From: Lophium mytilinum | Taxonomy: Eukaryota | DNA: 64,000 nucleotides | Direction: 5' to 3' | NCBI GenBank assembly: GCA_010093605.1 | Contig: MU004183.1 | Span: forward strand, 2,418,001 to 2,482,000 | Shown: positions 26,258-64,000 of the stretch, one piece after another | Layout of the letters: each line of letters opens with the position of its first letter | Numbering within the stretch: the stretch's first letter is position 1 | Notes under the pieces: model-generated | Database searches by the model: none | What the model saw: only the letters and a program-made list of their open reading frames with translations | Told to the model about the DNA's origin: nothing | Made by a program: the position numbers and the translations under genes

Positions 26258-26462
26258 TATAATATTTCTATTTATATAATATAAGAATTTAGAGGATAAT
26301 AGATATTAATTCTATATAGAAATCTAGCTAGGCTATATATATATTAGAGAGGCCTATATAGGCCTTAATTACACTAGATCTATATAGGAAAGCGTTCCTA
26401 CAGTAGATCTATACATTACGTGCACGACATCCGAATATTAACCGTATATTAAGAATTCCACA
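26258..26462 (-). repeat. 5' LTR of element A
   Basis: Direct repeat of 32-236 ending ...AATTCCACA, exactly where AT-rich DNA gives way to GC-balanced DNA. Confidence 0.9.
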
Positions 26463-40243: not shown

Positions 40244-41524
40244 TCAGACGGAGTTCAAGAAATCTCTCGTCATCTCCTCCCTAGAGAAACGCCATTAGTG
40301 TCTTTTACACCAATTGGAGAAGCGCACATATGCACTCAGACAGCTTACCTCGTCACCTTAACTCTCGTATAATACTTAGGAAGGCTGTCCCCGAACTTGA
40401 CGAAACTCTCTTGATCAGTGAATCTCAGATCAAACCAAAGTGTGGGGGGGTAAGAGAAGGGTCTAGAGAGTCGAAGGCTGCGCGATTCAGCACACTCACG
40501 TGTACTGAAGGAATTGTGAAGACTAATCTGACCAACGACTGTGAGAGTACTGGAAATGATGCGTCGAATGTCATAGCGGCATGCCTTATCGTTGAAGATC
40601 ATAGTCAGGTCTGAATTATTGAGATGTACTCCGTTGGTAGCGAAGTAATTTAGTTGATACTCAGACTGTGCTCCGCGTTCTGGTGGATCCTGATGCGTCG
40701 CTACCGTGCCTGGGGAACTCTTGACAGCGTCGTCTTCTTCGTGATATCTGGCACTTGAGAGAGTAGTCGGAAACCTATCTCTCTCAACCTTGCTCTTGTT
40801 GAAATTGCTAAGCAGTAGCGCTATGAACTGCGTGGCGTCATCCATCTTGCAGAGCTCCTGTAACGCTTCGAACGTCTCTGTGGTTTGGCAAGTGAAGTTC
40901 TTAGCATCGTTCCAACCCACGGAAACCATGACGAGAAGATAATTGAAGAGCTTGGAGTCCGGTGCCGTGTTCTGACATACGTATAGGATGTCATCAGCGC
41001 GAATTTTGTATAGGTGCGTCGACGCTGAGCGATTGTTGACATGTCTTGGTGCATGATTCACGCCGATCTGGTCCATGGCATAGTTCTTGAAACCTACGAC
41101 ACCCAACTTGTCCCCTAGAACCCAAGCCCGAATGTTGGTCCTTGGCTTGTGTATGCCTAATTTCGAGCCACCCTCGGTCGTCTCGGCTGGGAGATCCTCC
41201 AGAGGCTCGGGAGTGAAGTAATAACCTTTGGAGAACAGCCATTGGATGAATAGCTCGAAGATCTCGGGCTCATCTTCGGGAAGGCTGATCAGCCTCTCTT
41301 GCGCTTCCTTGAAGGCACCTTTGCATGCTGCACGAAAAAATGCCGAGGTCTGGCACAATAGGTCTTCAGGCAGATACCAGCGTCGGGTGTGAGGATCTCT
41401 GCCGACCCGAACCTCCACCGTGGGTGAAGTGAGGCTAGAGAGCAAAGAGTCAGCTAGAGACTGCGAATAGATAGCGTTCGACTTACATGTCCGCAGAGAA
41501 TACGGGCCGCACAGAAGCCGACAT
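40244..41524 (-). CDS. BTB/POZ domain protein with an uncharacterised C-terminal region; introns 41435-41486 and probably 40281-40348
   Basis: VEVRVG..LLCQTSAFFRAACKGAFKEA..ISLPEDEPEIFELFIQWLF..WVLGDKLG is a fungal BTB fold; GTAAGT/GTAAGC donors with branch sites. Confidence 0.85.
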
Positions 41525-51062: not shown

Positions 51063-54000
51063 ATGCCTGGCACTTCCGTCTCAGAGCCGCCCTCAGTGTC
51101 TCTATCCTGTACGCAGAACTGTTACACCTTGATCAATCGACATTCTAACTCGTGCCAGTTGCCAACAATTTCTGGGGCAAGGATGACGCTGGCGTCAGTC
51201 CACTGCTGGAGCGACTTCACAACGCAAAAGTCACCGGCGACGAACTGAAGTCTTTTTATACCAGTACATGACCCCGCTCGCATGATCGACTACATCACAC
51301 TGACACACGAGTAGCTCGCGCCGCCATTGAAGATGAATACTCTCGGAAGCTTCTCAATCTCTCCCGAAAGCCCCTCGGCTCCTCCGAAGCCGGCACCCTC
51401 CGCATGTCCCTCGATATTGTTCGAGGCGAGGTCGAATCTATGGGCAAGTCCCACCAAAATATTGCGGGCCAAATGAAGAGCGAATTAGAAGAGCCACTGG
51501 CTGCATTCGCTGGTGGAATGAAGGAGCGTAGAAAGATTGTACAGTCTGGCATTGAAAAACTGCTAAAGACCAAGACACAACAAACGATGACAGTCAACAA
51601 GGCGCGTGACCGGTACGAACAGGACTGTCTGAAGATTAAAGGTTTTCTCGCACAGGCGCACATGGTCATGGGTCAGGAGGAACGGAAGAACAAGGCGAAG
51701 TTAGAGAAGACTCAGATCCAGCTTTCCAGTACCAGCAGCGACTACGAAGCCGCTGTCAAAGTACTAGAGGAAACTACAGGCCGGTGGAATCGAGATTGGA
51801 AGGCCGGTTGTGACGTGAGTAGACCCGCCTGTGGCTCAGTGCGATATTGATACTGACAATCGGGTAGAAATTCCAAGATCTCGAGGAAGAGCGCATAGAC
51901 TTCATGAAAGCCAGTCTATGGACTTTTGCGAATATCGCGTCAACTGTCTGTGTCAGCGATGATGCCGTAAGTCTCACACACACCATCTAGCCAGTAAGTT
52001 ATAGTCCTAATTGATAATCTAGTCATGCGAGAGGATTCGCTTGTCACTCGAAGATTGCGATGTCGAAAAAGATATCATGGGCTTCATCAAAGATGCGGGA
52101 ACTGGCCAAGAGATACCTGATCCGCCTAAATTCATCAACTTTTGCAGGGGCGATGTCAACGACAATGCGTCGGAGACTTCGGATGACGGTAATTACTCCG
52201 TGGCCCAATTCCAGCGCACCATGAATCCAGCATTCCGGAGCTCTTCACCTCAACCATCCGTCTTTGAATCTCACCACGATCCAAGCAACCCACTCGCCAA
52301 AGAGTTGGGCCTGAAAGAGCCCCAGGTGGTCCCAGATACCGAACCACTAAAGCCGCAACAACCGCAGCGGCCGCAGCAGCCGCAGCAGCCTCAAAATCCC
52401 CCGTCATCGCGAGGAATCCAACCAGACCCTCGATTGATCCAGGCGCAACAACAGGCACGCCAGCAGTACCAGCAGAGCCAGTATGAAGATGTTCCAAAGG
52501 TGTCTCACAACGAGTTCCCAATGGACGGGATGACGCAGTTCTGTCGGCCAGGCGCTCCCTCCGAACGAGGCAATCCTAGCCCCGTACGACCCTCGAGCAG
52601 AGATTCGCACAGTGATTATTCGGGTGGCTCAAACTTCTCCAACATCGACCTTCCCAGTGGTTCGAACTCCCCAGGAAAACCTATGGCTCCCATTGCGCAG
52701 CCGCTAGATGATAGGCAGATCCAGAAGAAGAAGAGCGGGTTCTTCCAAGGTCATAGTCCGTTCCGTAGGAGGAGCAAACATGAGAAGGAGCCGCCCCAGG
52801 CAGCCGTCACCACTCCTAGCAGCCGTAACACTTGGGCGCCACCGTCCAGGAGAAGCAACAACGAAAACATCAGTCCCACCCGTCAACAAGGCTATGGCCA
52901 AGGTGCGCGTGGGATCCTAGGAGGAGAAGGACGGTCGGCAAGCCCAGAGCCAGTCGACCCTCGCGCAAACTTTCAGCTGAACATTGGGAACAATGTGTTT
53001 GATGTTGCATCTCCCGACAAGCGTAAGCAAAAGCAACAGGTTCAGAGTGATGAGCCGGAAGAGCTTGACCCTATCGCCCAGGCCCTGGCAGAGCTGAAGG
53101 GCGTCACAAAGCAAACATCCGTTCGCATGTCAGCAGATCGATACCACGGTCTTTCCACGCCCGCACCTCCGGCAACGCCAGGAAACGCCAACACGCCAGT
53201 CGGAGGAATCCTTACTCCACTCGCCAATGGCGCAGTGAACGCAGCAAAGCGCGGCACGCCTCCACCGTCCTACGAACAGCCACCCATGTCTCGTCTTGGA
53301 GCACCACAGCCTGCCCACACGGCCCGCCAGATGCAGCAAACAACTCAGAGATACCTTGACCAAAAGACAAGCATGTTCAACACAGGGGCAACCCAACGTA
53401 ACTCAGGCTCCAATCAGAATCCGAGTTCTCGTCCGACTACGCGCGGCGTTGCAGGACAAAGCCAAGAAGTCGTTCGAGCTCCTTCTCCCGGCCCTCCGCG
53501 CGCAACTAGCCCTCGTCCAGGGCTCTATCAAACACCATCTGCGCAAGCACCCCAGACCTTCCGTGCTCCGTCGCCTAATCCGTATGCTGCGTCGAATGCG
53601 GGTGGCCGGCCTCGTGCACAGTCTTCCAGCCCCATTAAGCAGTACAACCGCGACTCATACACTCGTGGCGGCTCACCAGGCCAAGCGCCCATTCCCCGCG
53701 CCGTGTCTCCCAATCCTTCTTACGGCGGGGGTCGTCAAGTTCCCGCGTCGCGCGACTCTTACAGCCATGGCGGCTCCCCAGCCCAGGCTCCAATCCCTCG
53801 CGCCGTCTCTCCCAATCCTTCTTACGGCGGTGGTCGTCAAGTTCCCGTACCGCGCAACTCTTACACCCGTAATGACTCGCCAGCCCAAGCTCCCGTTCCT
53901 CGCGCCGTCTCTCCTAATCCTGCTGCGTACAGCAGTAGTCGTCAAGGTCCCGCTTCCCGTCCCGCTTCCCGCGCGGTGAGCCCAGCACCACAGTTCCGTC

Positions 54001-54523
54001 AGTCATATGACCGCCCCAGCAGCTCGCGAGGCAGCGATATGGCACTGCAGCTTGCCCCGGGTCCCGGCAGCGAGCGAGGCGAAGGAAGTGTGTACGGCGG
54101 CAGCCAGCGCAGCCGTGGCGGCGGAGGCAATCCTAGGCCACAGAGCGCTTACTATGCTCCCAGCGAAGCTGGATACAGCAGCGCTGGGGGCGGCGGCGGC
54201 ACTTCGAGTTCTAACCAGGTCAGCGCCAGAGTTCGAAGCCAGAGCGTTGCTGAGCCGAGGCAATATACTAAGGAAGGTCGTATGATTATGCATTATGGTG
54301 AGTGCCTCTTCTTTGACGTTTTGACATTTGGATGTTTGCTAACGATCTCACAGCTCGCGCTATGTACATGTACCAAGCCCAAATCCCCGAGGAACTCAGC
54401 TTCGCCAAAGGCGACATCCTCGCTGTGCTGCGCCTGCAAGACGACGGGTGGTGGGAGGCGCAGGTCATCGGGAAGAATGGCAGGCCAGGCCTTGTGCCTA
54501 GTAACTACTTGCAAAACTGTTAA
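51063..54523 (+). CDS. HOF1: F-BAR/SH3 cytokinesis protein (Hof1/Cdc15/Imp2 family), multi-exon
   Basis: FANNFWGKDDAGV at the start of the FCH domain, F-BAR helices, long disordered middle, and C-terminal SH3 (ARAMYMYQAQIPEELSFAKGDIL..DDGWW..GLVPSNYL); several canonical introns. Confidence 0.9.
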
Positions 54524-55289
54524 GCGGGATTTTTTGATGTCTGGTTGTATGCGGGAGATGTGTTTGATAGCGTTCTGCAAATTGCACAAGGTTTGTTAGT
54601 TCTTATTGGCTACTGCATACGTGCTGGATAGGCTGAGTATGTGCAGACGAGATGAGTGAGAGGTGTTTGGGGTTTGGGTTGATTTTACTGCTTGGTTTGA
54701 TGATGTTGTTGATGTTGGTGAGGGGATGTAGTATATGGCAATGATAAATTGTGTATGAAACGAATCTCTTTTGGTGCCTTTGGACTGTGTGTGCTGTGAG
54801 TTGGGCTTTTTGTCTTCTAACATAATTCTTGAGCACAGAGTAATAGTTGTATATAGTATTCAAGGGTAGCGACTTAACACCTAGTCAGCGCACTTCATTT
54901 TCTCCTAGGTGTTTAGATCATCACTCGTGTAGCCGATATAAAATAATCAGAGTATAGGTGTATAGATTTGAGTTTCTAGAGTGGTAGCTTTTAATATGAA
55001 ATAGGAATTTTTCATTTCAACTCTGTAATTGTGATTTCAGTCTTCCGAATCCCAGTAATCGAGCCCGTATGATGTGCTGCTCATTGTCGAGAGCCCCACC
55101 TCAAGTGAATGACGTTGCATTGCATCCCAGTCCACTTCTTTAGATGTAAATCAGAAAAGAACCAAGCTGTCCCAAGCACGTTCCATCTTTTGGCAATCTC
55201 ATCGTAGTGCTCACAAGTTTGTGTTGGTAGGAAGAGGGTTGCTCGTTGCTGTTTGCCCGTCAACGTTTGTCTGCGTCAAGTTCAAGGCT

Positions 55290-56034: not shown

Positions 56035-56400
56035 ACTGGACCTAGCTGATGGTGTCTTGAAGATTTGTAGGGCAGGTAAAGGTCGAACAAACGTAGATTA
56101 AAGGTAGAGAATAAGAGAAAGGTAGAGTGAAGGGTGAAGAAGTTTCAGCAGAGCCATTCTACTATTGAATCACGGTGAAAGGGCGAAGTGAAGTGGTCAC
56201 CACTACTCTTGGCATTTGACTCATGTAAATGCCTTTGCATTTTTGGCATTACTCACGAAGCACACAAATGTGTGTACAGGTTCTTGCCATTGTCATCAGT
56301 CCTCTGGTATAATTCATGAATCCGACAAGGAGGAAAACTTATATTCCTGTGCAACCTCAAAGCTCGCTAGCCCACCTCGGACAGCGCCATGCTCAGGGCC

Positions 56401-57619: not shown

Positions 57620-58386
57620 ATGGATGTCCATTTCCCGTTTAATGAGTCAGGCGGTCTTCCGGAGGACTTCAACAAGCTGTGAGTTACTTTAGAGACGAAC
57701 ACTTCTGCTTCTCTGAATGCGTTCTGATTTGGCGCAGATTGACAGGACCTACGATCAAAGTAGTCGTGGGTCGCTCTGGTGAAGACGATGCTACCTGGGG
57801 CATTCCACGCAAGCTTCTCTGCAACCACTCGAAGTTCTTCCAAAAGGCCACAGATCCCAGCCATGGCTTCAAAGAAGCGCTAGAAGGCATGGTGCTTCTT
57901 CCCGAAGAAGACCCCGAAGTATTCGCCCATTTCGTGAGCTTCATCTACACAGGTGGTTATTATATCGATGATGACGCGATCGCGATCTCGATGAATAACT
58001 ATGACGCTCCGAACGCACATGCTGCGATTTGGATGCTGGCAGATAAGCTTTTCTCACCTCGCCTCCAATACCAGGCAATGAAGAAGTTGTACGAGAACTA
58101 CATTCCCACGAACCAGGGGTCCATTTGGTACCTGTTGCCCCACGCGGTATCATTCGTCTTCCGCAACGTCCCCGAATCATCAAAGTTGCGGCTTTTCATG
58201 GAGGATACCGTGGTCCAATACTGGGACAATCGGGACGTTGTTGATATGAATTGGAGGGACGAGTGGATCAAGTTGTGTCTAGACAATCCGGACTTCAACA
58301 AGAAGCTGCTTCTTCGCCTTTCTTATCCGGCCGTGCAGGATGGCCAGTATCTCAAACCCATGAAGCACTACTTCGTAGGGTTCTAG
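57620..58386 (+). CDS. BTB/POZ domain protein; intron 57679-57737
   Basis: TIKVVVG..IPRKLLCNHSKFF..FKEA..LPEEDPEVFAHFVSFIYTG..WMLADKL. Confidence 0.9.
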
Positions 58387-58659
58387 GGATGAGCCGGCCT
58401 CGAATCCGGATGAGCATATCCCCGCTTCCAAATTCTTCCATATCGGAGAACACGACGGTTGGACTTCTATGCTTAAATCAAACTAAATTACTTGTCGATA
58501 TCACCGGAATACGGAAGATCGGCATTCCTATCATTTCTCTGCATGCCTCGTACACTTTGCAAGAAACTCTTGTAGCTGGATTATGATAGGGAACGAACCT
58601 TCAAAATGAAACATCTTTCACAAACCATATGAACTTGCCACAAACGAGAGAGAGAACTG

Positions 58660-60716
58660 GCCTCTAATCTCCGCCCTGTTGACTATGACATCGCCTCCTA
58701 GATTATCATGGCTATGCAGGGTCAGTCTAACATCGTCACTATGCGGGCAAAGAGCTGCAGATTTTCAACCTCTGATCTTCGTTTCGCGGCTTTTGACACA
58801 GTCGCCCGAACTCGATTACGGAAAGAAGGTACTTCAAGCGGTGCTACGTACTTGTGAAAAACTTTCGAAACCGCGCCCTGCGATTAACGCCTCACCGTCT
58901 TTGACATTAGCGCCAGATCCTTTTTCTTATGTGAGGCACCTCAAACGGCGGCGTGTACCTGTCAAAAGAGCTTCAAACCCACAGCCTCCAATTCGTGCCT
59001 CATGATCTTTGACACCACAGCCACATCCTGTTTCCGTATGTGAGGTACCTCAAACAGCGGCGTGTACCTGCTAAAGCGTCCAGTTAAGCGCCATCTAATT
59101 CGAGCCCTATGGATTTGGACATCATCAGTAGATTCGGGATCTGTACGCGGCGCACCTCAAACAGTACCACGTACCTAGCAAAGTCCTCCGATCTCGTAGT
59201 GTCCAATTTGCATCCGACGGACTTTCGCATTGCCTTCTATGTTCGGATCAGCACATGAAGAACCTCAAACGGCGTCACCTACCTGGAAAATGGCCATGCT
59301 TCACAGCCCGATCTGCGTCGCGACTGCTTTAACATCGCCTCCAAGCTTTGCAATCATGCCTGGAGGACCTCAAACACCGCTACTTAGGTGGGAATTCACC
59401 GTGACTTCGGGCTGTTCAATACGCGTCCTGTAGATTTTGACATAAGCCTCCGATCCTACATGCATATGCATGGCGCGTCAGACGATATCACATACTTAGA
59501 AAATCATTCCGATTCGAGGGTGTCCAATTCCCATCTTGAGGCTTTTGACATCCTTACCGGGAAAGCCATCCGTACCGAAAGGACCTCAGACAACGGCACG
59601 ACATAGAAAACTACTACGATTTCGTAGCGTCCAATATACAACTTCCAGAATGTGATATTCTTCTCAAAAATATCAGGCTCACGGGGAAACCCCTTCCATC
59701 GCTATCCAGCTGGAAAAGTGCTGTAATTCCGCAGTGTCCAATATACGACTCCCGGAACGTTCTAACCATCTCGAAAATTTTAAGCTTACGGGGACACCCC
59801 TTCCATCGCTAACAAGCTGGAAAAATAGTGTAATTGGAGGTAGTTCAATATGCGCTTGGGCGAGCTTGACATAATGGCTGGAATTTCTAAGCCCTCGGGG
59901 GCGCCCTTTCCAGCGCTATCTTAGTGGAAAAGGGCGTCGATTCGACGAGGTTAGATATAAGAGTTGGATACCTTTACATCCTAGTCGAAAATTCTAAGTA
60001 CCTGGGGGCACTCCTTCTAGCGCTATCTTATTGGAAAAGTACCGCGATTCTAATACTCACGATCGAGAATATTACATCGGTTTTGCAAACTTTAAGCCCC
60101 TCGGAGGACGCCTTCCAGCGCCATCGTGTGGGAAAATTACGGGACATGACGATGTCTGATATACGAGTTCCGGAACGCAACATCGTCCCTAGGTCCCGCT
60201 CGGCACCCGAGACCGCTCCTGACGTTGTTAACGTGTTGGAAATGAGCTGATAATTCGCTCTCTCAAATTCACGTGTTTCGGAATGGGACATCGTCCCAGG
60301 TCTCGCTCGGCATCCAAAATTGCTCCTGACAGTGGCGACGCGTTGGAAAAGGGCTAGAATTTCGCAATCTCCAATTCAAGCGTTCCGAAACATGACATCG
60401 GTACTGATTTCCGCTGAACCAGTAGGGGCACCTCAAACGGTGTAATCTTGCTGGAAAAGTACCATGATTCCAACAGGTGCAATGTACGCCTTCTAGAACG
60501 TGACATCTTACCCAGATCCCGCTCGCCACCCGAGAGCGCTCTTGACGGTGCCAACGTGTTGGAAAAGACCTATTAATTCAGGTTGTTTGAAATAGACCTT
60601 CCGGAACGTGACATTGTTGTTCATCTCCGCTGAACTCGTAGGTACACCCCAGACGCCGTCACCCTGCGAGAAAAGCGCCCGACATGGCAGCGTGTGATAC
60701 GCTATACCTTGGACAA
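58660..60716. repeat. Diverged tandem array of about 19 units of ~107-108 bp, apparently non-coding
   Basis: TGACAY-like anchors at 58686, 58794, 58902, 59010, 59117, 59225, 59330, 59438, 59546, 59653, 59760, 59867, 59974, 60072, 60178, 60286, 60393, 60501, 60609. CACCTCAAAC or CCCTTCCA recurs at ~+36, GGAAAA at ~+60 and TCCAAT at ~+85. Confidence 0.9.
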
Positions 60717-61189: not shown

Positions 61190-62653
61190 CTATCCGTGAC
61201 TCGCCACCGCCCTCTCCAGCCACGCCGTCTCCAACTTCAAGCAGCATTTCCAGCACACCTCCTGCCGGCACGCCCGGAGCTCGCACTGCCAGACACTCCT
61301 TCCAACATTTCTCCCGCAAGCGTCACACCCCACCCGGACCTCACACCCCACGCGTACCCCTCTCTCGTTCAAATAAGTGACCGGAACGTCGTTGATGCTG
61401 CCGCTTTGGGGGACGCTCTCGAGCCTAATTTCGCGGAAAAGGTGCCCAGAGATGACGCAGTGGTGCTTTGGGTACGTGAATGAGCCTTCTTCCTCAACAT
61501 TGAACATTTGGGGTGAAAGTATGGGGATTTTAAGGTATTTACCTGGACGCTGTGTAGCCTCTTGCGCGTTGTTCGCGTTGAAAGGCGCATTGCGTCGACG
61601 CCGAGGGGACGCCGCACCTCCACGCTGCGTATCGATCGCGGACACAATGGCCGCGATGCTGTACCCTTCCGCCTCTCTTGCCAGATCTTCGAGCAGGCCG
61701 CGTTCCAGGCTCTGCAGAGGACTTGTGACGCTGAGGCGGGCCATTTGGGGCGGCCTCCGGAGGTTGTGCGCGATGTTGTAGGACTTTCGGCGCGACGGGA
61801 CGTCCACGATATGGGGGCTTCTTGCGGGCTTTGTGTACAGCACCGCTCGCTGTCCGCCGATGCCGGACTCCAGAACATCGGTGTCGTATTCACTGGTTGC
61901 AGGGTCAGCTGACGCGTTGGAGGGCTTCAGGGAGGCGCGATACTCAGCCGAATCTGGCTCGTCTTCTTCGCGGATTGAAGGTAGTATCGCGCGCATTCTT
62001 TGTCGAGTCTTGATTCGCGGGCCTCGGACTCGGGATGCGCGGACGGCCCTCAGAAGGTCAATGAGTTCCTATGCGTTTAGTACAATCTCGATAATGCGTT
62101 GAGGGACACTTACACCGCCATCAGCCTTGTCAGAGACGCTCCGTTCTTCGCCTCGAAGACTGTCCATTTTCTTCACCCTCTTCAAGGTAGGCAGATTTGA
62201 AGCCTTGCCCTTGCCCTTCTGTCCAGCCTTATCTTCCTTCAAGACCACCTTGACACCGCGAACCAGCCGCCCACCAGAACCAGTCTCAGACCCAGATCCT
62301 CCAGCGCCAGAAACAGATTGTGCTTGTGTACGTGCAGCGGCGCGCTCAGAATACGTACCTCGAGATAGAGTCTGTGTAGCTTTCAAGTTGCCGATGTGTG
62401 CGCGCCTCCGAAGTCCTCCACGAGTCATCGGCGACAACGGGTCCCTAGTCCTGTTCGAGTCCCACAGTGCCAGCGAGCGCATCTGCGGAATCGGTGATGC
62501 GGGGATGATCGATTGGCCGAGCGTCGGTCCTGACAAGTCAGAGTCAGATGCTGAAGTATCCGATCGAGGGGTTTCGTCGTCCTGCCACCATGGTCGCGGG
62601 AAGGTCGGGGCGGGCGGAGGAGGGAGGTTCGTGTCAGACATTGCGGCGGTCAT
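61190..62653 (-). CDS. Hypothetical protein with a C-terminal Cys/His-rich putative zinc-binding domain; intron 62069-62113
   Basis: A GTAAGT...ACTAAA...TAG intron joins the two ORFs in frame; C-terminus HHCVISGH...CDAC...CELRAC..VCWKC. Confidence 0.7.
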
Positions 62654-63414
62654 AGAGGAGGAGCGTGCGTGTGTGTGATATGACGTGGCTGATGAGAGGC
62701 GTGTGCTATGCGTGACGGTTGATGCGTGACGGTCGAAGCGTTTTGGCTGTAGCGTGGTGGTCGTTGTGATGAGCGAGCGGGAGCGCTGGCGGAAAGACAA
62801 GAATAGTTGGCTCGAGACTTGTGGATAGACAGCCGTGAAGGAGACCGCACACTCTCCGAGCAATGAGCGCTCTGGCGAGTGGAAAGCGGTGTTCTGTACT
62901 CGATCGTGCGTGAAGATAGGGCTCGAACGGTGGTGTAAAGGTTCGGAGGTGGAGGATGGTCGGACGGTTTAAGAGGTTGAGCGAGCAGGAGTGAGATGAA
63001 GAAGCGCGCTTAGACGCGCCGCGCTTCGATGTGATGAAGGAAATGGGCGACTGAGTGACGGAGGTGAGAAGGGTGTCGTGTTCACATGAGAGCAGGCGGC
63101 CAGAGACGTTGTTGAGGGTCGAACTAGAGCTCTGCGCTTCTTCACCAATATGTGCAGTAAGAAAAGTGATGATACGAGGCGATCATTGAACTATACGAAC
63201 CATCTTACAGTCAACTGTGCTTGGGGTATTTCAATCATAAGTACCGACTCATCATGCGCTAGACACCTTCGCAATGCCTCTGAAAACGTCCTAATACCCC
63301 CGTGACCCTTGGTCGCCTTGAAGCAAATATGAAAACGCTGTTATTGCCATGTATGCAAACCATAAACTATCGACTTGAAGATGACCTACCGCTATGAGAA
63401 ATCAAAAGCAAACC

Positions 63415-64000
63415 TCAAGGACGATCTTTCGAAAAACTCAACCGCGCAACCTGTTCCACCCGTCCACTGCTGCTTCTCTTGTGGTCTTCGCTTGGCGATG
63501 TTGGAGTTGTTGGAGATGTCAGCTCTAGAGAACGACGAAGACCTAGACCAGCCGTGTTACCTAGGCTTCGGGAGCTGTCAGGGCTCTTTGGTAGACGAGA
63601 GATGTGCATTGATTCGAGCGAATCAGGTTCGCGGGGAGATGCAGAGGCCTTGCGTGGAGAAACACCAAGCCCTCGATGACCCTCAATAGGCGGCGGCGAC
63701 CTCGTTAAGAAGTCCGTGATCTCTGCTTGACTTGTCCCAGAAGTAGAAGCTGCATCACTGTCCTTGTCGCTTGGTTGGCTAGCAGTTCGTCTGTGGCTTT
63801 TCGGTGGCTGGAGTTGGAGGAATTTCTGAATGGCATTTCGGTCGTCACCTTCATCATCGTCGTCGTCGTCAGATGTACCGTCGAAGTAGGAGTCGTCCCA
63901 TACCGTCGAGTCTCTGCTTTTAAGACTCCGATTGGACGCACTATGGGCATATCCACCATCAAGGGAGCCCTTAAGCGGGGCTAATTCATCAGCCACCTCC
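63415..64000 (-). CDS. 3' part of a Ser/Asp-rich hypothetical protein (truncated by the window edge)
   Basis: Open frame running off the right edge; low complexity; no recognised domain. Confidence 0.55.
   Translation of the reverse strand, partial: EVADELAPLKGSLDGGYAHSASNRSLKSRDSTVWDDSYFDGTSDDDDDDEGDDRNAIQKFLQLQPPKSHRRTASQPSDKDSDAASTSGTSQAEITDFLTRSPPPIEGHRGLGVSPRKASASPREPDSLESMHISRLPKSPDSSRSLGNTAGLGLRRSLELTSPTTPTSPSEDHKRSSSGRVEQVARLSFSKDRP

Follow-up and report, generated by a model that had tools for sequence, protein, structure and literature searches.

The window, as we call the whole 64,000-nucleotide stretch of Lophium mytilinum DNA analysed here, carries a head-to-tail array of 19 diverged units between two convergent genes (Table 1). 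A BTB/POZ-domain gene, whose product is 100% identical to a Lophium mytilinum protein record, lies on one side, and an orphan gene on the same strand as the array, whose product has a 71% identical relative in Mytilinidion resinicola, lies on the other; the placement of the array 3' of both, given in a preliminary description of this DNA, was borne out. At 61190-61465 (minus strand), a frame of the orphan gene reaches a Cys-rich end at 61190 only if its 77-nt intron is kept, while the spliced form stops near 61425, as the Mytilinidion protein does, and the annotated model P0003 (203 aa) uses a different frame there. The 5,041-nt RNA contig spans the orphan gene and the gene upstream of it, which is presumably lipase-like, with no intron between them, reflecting either overlap or read-through.

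Elsewhere in the window, a five-intron gene at 51108-54760 (plus strand), which we take to resemble an F-BAR/SH3 protein of the Hof1 type, contains a 102-bp coding tandem repeat at 53649-53921; the exon tested gave no Pfam match. Two BTB-like genes, at 40581-41322 (minus) and 57780-58374 (plus), are related (26% identity over 226 aa). Positions 1-26500 form an AT-rich block (GC ~27%) with a strong RIP signature, in which one 21-bp unit recurs at 86-135 and 26312-26361.

Table 1 Features of the array and its surroundings, in window positions unless stated.
Feature	Position	Strand	Basis or remark
Two family boxes in inverted orientation, separated by 97 bp (98-bp class)	56284..56389		Behind another minus-strand gene
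Convergent BTB/POZ-domain gene, 235 aa (P0001)	57620..58386	+	
Head-to-tail array, 19 diverged units	58686..60715	-	Strand set by family box and transcript
Intron, 140 nt, GT..AG	58712..58851	-	RNA contig joint
Intron, 60 nt, GT..AG	58899..58958	-	RNA contig joint
Best-scoring family box, GTYTGA core	58931..58954	-	Matrix score
Intron, 46 nt, GT..AG	59237..59282	-	RNA contig joint
Probable fourth intron, 68 nt	59428..59495	-	From a 16-nt loose contig end
First core base, boxes 1-7 of 13	58842, 58949, 59058, 59165, 59273, 59378, 59594	-	
First core base, boxes 8-13 of 13	60119, 60226, 60333, 60441, 60549, 60657	-	
Five-unit sub-clade	59653..60177	-	Common 1-bp deletion, changed box core; G3, G7, G10 mostly kept
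Upstream same-strand (orphan) gene, ~368 aa, no Pfam family	61425..62653	-	Introns ~62069-62113 and 61466-61542
RNA contig, 5,041 nt	62113-64000 and L002 2416-5859	-	

Autocorrelation across 58660-60716 peaked at lags 107 (0.393) and 108 (0.391), about 7 s.d. above the mean (0.251, s.d. 0.019), and the periodicity was limited to ~58600-60700. Nine units are 108 bp long, seven 107 bp, and one each 105, 106 and 98 bp, with a mean pairwise identity of 47%, a recount that agrees with the lengths and strong divergence given earlier. The array thus consists of head-to-tail non-coding units of conserved length, as a satellite does. In both the identity matrix and the unit tree, adjacent units are the most alike, as expected of local duplication in a satellite; branching order tracks position along the array, total tree length is ~8 substitutions per site and 76% of it lies on terminal branches. 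In 13 columns, 17 or more of the 19 units carry one and the same base; when units were simulated 500 times at a uniform rate on this tree, such columns averaged 3.65 and never exceeded 11. The four short motifs that the preliminary description had found in register are confirmed to be so, and the excess of conserved columns runs counter to the uniform divergence along the unit that the same description had named as evidence against constraint. Variation in rate among sites is otherwise mild (gamma shape ~3).

Aligning the units takes ~10 indels, of which eight are single-base, one spans 3 bp and one 9 bp, against ~860 substitutions (~1.2%). The available text of a Neurospora mutation-accumulation source gives 231 indels per 1077 point mutations (10.1101/2022.03.13.484164); as homopolymers account for many of those indels, the shortage of indels in the array is a rough estimate. 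The 98-bp unit belongs to the five-unit sub-clade, is 9 bp shorter than its 107-bp neighbours and matches one of the length classes of the wider family described below. Decay of the array by RIP was rejected, as the signature is absent (TpA/ApT 0.78, versus 1.76 in the AT-rich block of the window).

The contigs of run X1 are taken as RNA because they are spliced, with 12 splice joints among the pieces listed. Minus-strand RNA covers the whole array, in assembled contigs that give neither ends nor levels, and the array is therefore not a tight stop; one contig (60122-61892) links coding exons of the orphan gene to the right-hand units. The minus strand is probably the functional sense of the array. 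All four donors, that of the probable fourth intron included, share one repeat column ~9 nt before the box, although the donor base stands at this column in just 7 of the 19 units, and the longest ATG-started frame of the spliced RNA within the array has at most 87 codons. On the sense strand of 16 arrays, donor (65 versus 60), branch (41 versus 38) and acceptor words (25 versus 39) showed no enrichment. We infer that the in-array introns arise incidentally, when transcription reads through into units of one sub-clade.

The element that defines the family is a ~24-bp pseudo-palindromic box on the minus strand of the window, about TGRYRCC-GTYTGA-RGTSSYY (short form RYRCC-GTYTGA-RGTGY), in which inverted arms surround an asymmetric 6-bp core and around which A/T tracts are phased. 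Thirteen of the 19 window units pass the matrix threshold for this box and six fail; five units share a changed core. Two of the motifs reported earlier fall within this anatomy, GGAAAA as the T-tract before the box and TGACAT as the ATGTCA element after it. The slow columns of the window include the family positions G3, G7, G10, C-1 and T-4, of which G3, G7 and G10 are kept in 17-18 of the 19 units, and when slow positions of window and family were matched, the true register ranked first of 108 shifts (rho 0.27).

A nucleotide search with the whole array recovered its own locus only, and such a search therefore misses the family. A translated unit gave a weak match on contig C18, where two 108-bp units scored 45 and 40 bits with the sequence-only model R1, and by way of this copy a long array, in which R1 likewise recognises units, was reached on contig C23, behind an XRN-family gene. 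In the 43-Mb assembly, 508 exact copies of an 11-mer from the box were counted, compared with 115 for a reversed control, and 46 of a 15-mer, compared with one. Across 443 kb in 37 regions chosen for box matches, the matrix found 589 boxes, versus 30 in shuffles. As 110 of these 589 are exact 11-mers, extrapolation from the 11-mer share gives roughly 2,000 boxes genome-wide. These counts rest on exact patterns and on the 37 regions, a non-random sample drawn from the first 100 listed 11-mer matches (14 regions) and the 46 15-mer matches (20), together with C18, C23 and the window. A GGAAAA..CCAAT pattern occurred 85 times versus 31 for its control but did not cluster, and was dropped.

In all 10 other array classes, conservation is higher in the box than elsewhere in the unit, partly because units were selected on the box. 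Among 504 boxes, covariation of paired arm positions did not exceed that in shuffles, and arm mismatches were about equally G-U (484) and A-C (443), so the box behaves as a double-stranded site rather than a hairpin. AA/TT steps peak at -17, -6, +5, +28, +38 and +48 from the box, with a best period of 10.6-10.8, the two flanks tested overlapping in 108-bp arrays. This phase is similar in most length classes, weak in 120-bp pairs and absent from far spacers. The module measures ~65 bp, with T-tracts and A-tracts spaced by one helical turn on either side of the ~24-bp box. For the window array itself, a 10-11-bp recurrence of AA/TT/AT steps had been noted by eye: AA/TT alone agrees modestly, 10.8 bp ranking first of 29 harmonics, while AA/TT/AT/TA pooled peak at 11.9-12 bp.

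Boxes form either head-to-tail arrays or inverted pairs, the latter with separations of 88, 98 or 120-121 bp. In the head-to-tail arrays, periods group around 65, 98, 108, 130, 141, 151, 161, 172 and 226 bp. Over 7-16 bp, the 288 spacings were best fitted by a common period of 10.65 (R=0.71), and the 48 periods taken locus by locus by one of 10.66 (R=0.74). Forty of the 48 periods fall within 1.5 bp of n x 10.75, a value fitted on these same data, where 28% would be expected, and eight are off phase; all seven length classes found at two or more loci lie within 1.7 bp of such a multiple. By comparison, n x 10.5 fits 5 of the 48 periods and n x 10.4 fits 3, which argues against a relaxed or nucleosomal repeat. 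A period of 10.55 fits the back-to-back spacings (39 votes; p=0.0025 across 7-16), inverted pairs fit 11.15-11.2 and not 10.7, and of the 15 repeat lengths measured over whole inverted elements, nine fit n x 10.75. Phasing is weaker when each length class is counted once: p is 0.18 for the 14 tandem classes, and for the full set of 23 it is 0.05 with the period confined to 10-11.2 and 0.28 across 7-16.

Equal lengths recur in different subgroups of modules, on a weak module tree with 5 of 47 branches well supported, and no hidden boxes were found in the spacers, which together point to a repeated origin of the lengths and not to simple multimers. Multimers of 54- or 65-bp monomers were accordingly rejected, autocorrelation at those lags being absent as well. 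A phased DNA-level platform had been proposed from the window array alone; the idea gains support, chiefly from the family, in periods near multiples of 10.7 bp, box-phased AA/TT steps and the lack of covariation. On contig C1, as an exception to whole-turn spacing, off-phase periods of 74, 79 and 83 bp lie beside a regular 108-bp array (L021 5510-7163). The largest array observed, on contig C17 (L036 4404-9905), holds at least 41 boxes, mixes 108-, 65- and 161-bp units and follows an orphan frame of 1,200 codons at a distance of 160 bp.

Positions relative to genes were assessed in the 37 chosen regions with heuristic, codon-bias-based gene calls. Coding stretches make up 34% of these regions and contain 19 of 504 strong boxes. 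Thirty gaps hold a head-to-tail array; an upstream gene was called for 29 and lies on the same strand as the array in 25 (p=1e-4), with 27/31 and 25/29 at other thresholds, at a median distance of ~550 bp from array to upstream coding stretch. Downstream genes show no strand bias (8/22), and gaps holding inverted pairs do not stand out from gaps as a whole. A neutral satellite is expected to be oriented independently of genes, which these 25 of 29 arrays are not; as at Reb1-type sites, oriented sites lie downstream of genes, as far as the heuristic calls define them. Frames next to the arrays match a Pfam family in 12 of 30 cases, all different, and few are related to each other. Related upstream genes are limited to the C18 paralogues and one 74-aa match, and co-duplication with one gene family was rejected as the source of the bias, since upstream genes are mostly unrelated. 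The C18 paralogues are four minus-strand orphan genes at C18:1074589-1086696 (25-31% identity), with boxes behind three of them.

Searches beyond this assembly, which covered metagenomes, viral contigs, prokaryotes and other scanned genomes but not those of related fungi, recovered no second species with the family. Prokaryote genomes gave 22 box matches, close to the ~17 expected, and no matching family, viral contigs gave 0 family matches, and no look-alikes turned up in the other genomes. A metagenome scan with the neighbouring lipase-like gene found one distant locus, which lacks the array. On a Saprospiraceae metagenome contig (L067 1371-1504), 10 matrix matches within ~250 bp are probably a short local repeat.

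Two readings would place the meaning of the array in its product. Descent from a decayed gene for a 36-residue repeat protein is suggested by the unit length, 108 bp being 36 codons, by frame +1 scoring best, if non-significantly, and by the frame +1 translations that found the C18 copy. Codon-position identity bias is absent, however (p=0.85; best frame z ~1.3 versus shuffled columns), stops number 19-37 in each of the six frames, as the earlier claim of no open frame had it, and both stops and a 1-bp deletion are common to duplicated units. None of the family periods 65, 98, 130, 151 and 161 is divisible by three, and the C18 match carries stops as well. With neither codon bias nor a stop-depleted frame, a repeat-protein pseudogene was rejected, and we hold this origin to be extremely improbable. 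An RNA-level element in long 3' tails, whether it provides splice or RNA-binding signals in series or is a precursor of small RNAs, fits the transcription of the box-carrying strand, the three introns and one deduced intron that start from one repeat column, and the sense orientation behind genes. It fits less well with a donor base in so few units and with splice words that lack sense enrichment over 16 arrays; RNAalifold found 0 consensus pairs in the plus-strand alignment, covariation is absent with G-U and A-C mismatches near parity, and whole-turn spacing has no clear RNA rationale. Five of the 19 minus-strand units, folded singly, behaved like shuffles (z -0.3 to -1.8), ARAGORN found no tRNA genes in the array, and Rfam gave nothing near the gathering score, its one match (E=1.1) lying outside the array. 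The polycistronic small-RNA precursor proposed earlier thus finds neither structure nor an Rfam family on its side, and we consider an RNA-level role very unlikely.

The other readings concern mobility and neutral descent. The family includes 74 inverted pairs with ~22-bp arms and ill-defined ends, whereas in the window array each unit holds a single box. Pooling these pairs gave no target-site duplication signal of 2-9 bp at 0-21 bp outside the box, though age could erase one. Within 1.5 kb of 34 transposase matches (10/10 DDE_1, 12/18 MULE and 12/12 DDE_Tnp_4, most copies RIP-mutated), 115,926 bases held four box matches, a background level; a DDE_1 copy at C23:244271-244780 (L078) and a MULE copy at C2:1523762-1524052 (L087) are stop-free, with no box cluster nearby. 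A Helitron family search gave no match, as did its control, and the box arms lack covariation. The units could be selfish recombination cassettes, the box serving as a recombination site at which units are cut out as small circles and integrated into boxes elsewhere. Short circles would close only in phase, giving whole-turn lengths with no host benefit needed, and phased A/T tracts would help bending, although a 65-bp DNA circle would be highly strained. The available text of PMC5389552 states that relaxed minicircles consist of a whole number of helical turns, in keeping with this proposal. The arm-core-arm layout without covariation fits it too, as do single-orientation arrays in which 65-, 108-, 161- and 226-bp units stand together, and the similarity of 108-bp units at distant loci. 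Alone, however, cassettes leave the position behind same-strand genes unexplained; box bases are conserved in units with long terminal branches, neighbours in the window are closest relatives, as in local duplication, and no recombinase has been linked to the boxes. We judge this account unlikely.

An old satellite- or MITE-derived family in neutral decay, which we rate as equally unlikely, would have inherited its lengths and A/T phasing from a few ancestors, with slow columns reflecting mutation bias and alignment. The few distinct length classes, the weak significance when each is counted once, the MITE-like inverted pairs with their ~22-bp arms, the mild rate variation and the tree ordered by position all accord with it. 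Against it are the orientation bias, column conservation beyond simulation and the slow positions common to window and family in register. G7, moreover, is kept in a TpG context, which is a RIP target and would be mutated by it. Neutral decay also sits poorly with the few indels, the lack of target-site duplications and the merely background level of box matches near the 34 transposase loci.

Known repeat systems each resemble the family in part. Alpha satellite consists of head-to-tail non-coding units with conserved monomer length, a short conserved CENP-B box and local homogenisation, features shared here; in contrast, this family forms short arrays at many gene-proximal, non-RIP sites, in many length classes stepped by ~10.7 bp, with an inverted-pair form and a strong polarity relative to the upstream gene. 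Fungal MITEs (mimp, Guest, EFT) are ~96-130 bp long, with ~22-bp inverted arms and many intergenic copies. The family is similar in size, copy number, location and length of arms, the ends of its inverted pairs being ill defined; no target-site duplication was found here, nor a transposase with these ends among the DDE_1, MULE and DDE_Tnp_4 matches, and most boxes stand in one-box head-to-tail arrays. Bacterial REP/BIME elements are extragenic, often behind genes, transcribed, and arranged as inverted pairs and tandem mosaics; the gene-tail location, transcription and both arrangements recur here, although REPs are hairpins read as single strands, whereas the present box lacks hairpin covariation. 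Introner-like elements of Dothideomycetes, from the same fungal class, are repeats spliced in sense orientation, according to the available text of PMC4457414. Sense-orientation splicing is likewise seen here; compared with that account, the boxes avoid coding stretches, splice signals are not family-wide and units have no stable fold. An introner-like element was therefore rejected, on the share of boxes in coding stretches (19/504), the donor base in 7/19 units and the unenriched splice words. In budding yeast, the available text of PMC7618759 describes Reb1 as enriched ~30-40 bp past some polyadenylation sites and as a proposed roadblock. Like the family boxes, such sites, as that text describes them, are specific DNA sequences placed downstream of genes; the family differs in its motif, in having 3-41 boxes in phased arrays and in its repeat-family origin.

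In our preferred reading, the window array arose by tandem expansion in place from a dispersed, lineage-specific non-coding element, known from one genome, that works as double-stranded DNA. For the family at large, we put at about even the chance that it is a constrained, putatively protein-bound, helically phased double-stranded DNA element. The gene-tail position and whole-turn spacing suggest that the arrays are predicted docking sites for a DNA-binding protein. A dimer-like protein may bind each box and bend or wrap the DNA; neighbouring boxes would then have to share a helix face, such that lengths would persist only near multiples of ~10.7 bp, and polarity would come from the asymmetric core. 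Once units have duplicated locally, selection would act to keep the bases of the box and the whole-turn lengths, with which the low indel count of the array is consistent. In the least certain step, the arrays behind genes might form polar barriers or chromatin boundaries that slow or end read-through by RNA polymerase II, by analogy with a Reb1-type roadblock. That oriented, phased docking arrays (~2,000 boxes by extrapolation) behind unrelated genes are polar barriers or chromatin boundaries read by a putative dimer is a tentative proposal, which we regard as possible rather than probable.

To our knowledge, gene insulation and the ending of transcription are poorly mapped among the closely packed genes of filamentous ascomycetes. 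In the literature searched, which included PMC12910237 and excluded supplements and most subscription papers, we found no published description of the family. What is new here is the single box that unites array and pair forms, the multi-locus test of phasing and the orientation bias. A defined 24-bp box, whole-turn spacing and a fixed gene-tail polarity make the family directly testable. If its units instead move as small circles by way of a recombination site, they would represent an undescribed kind of fungal mobile element.
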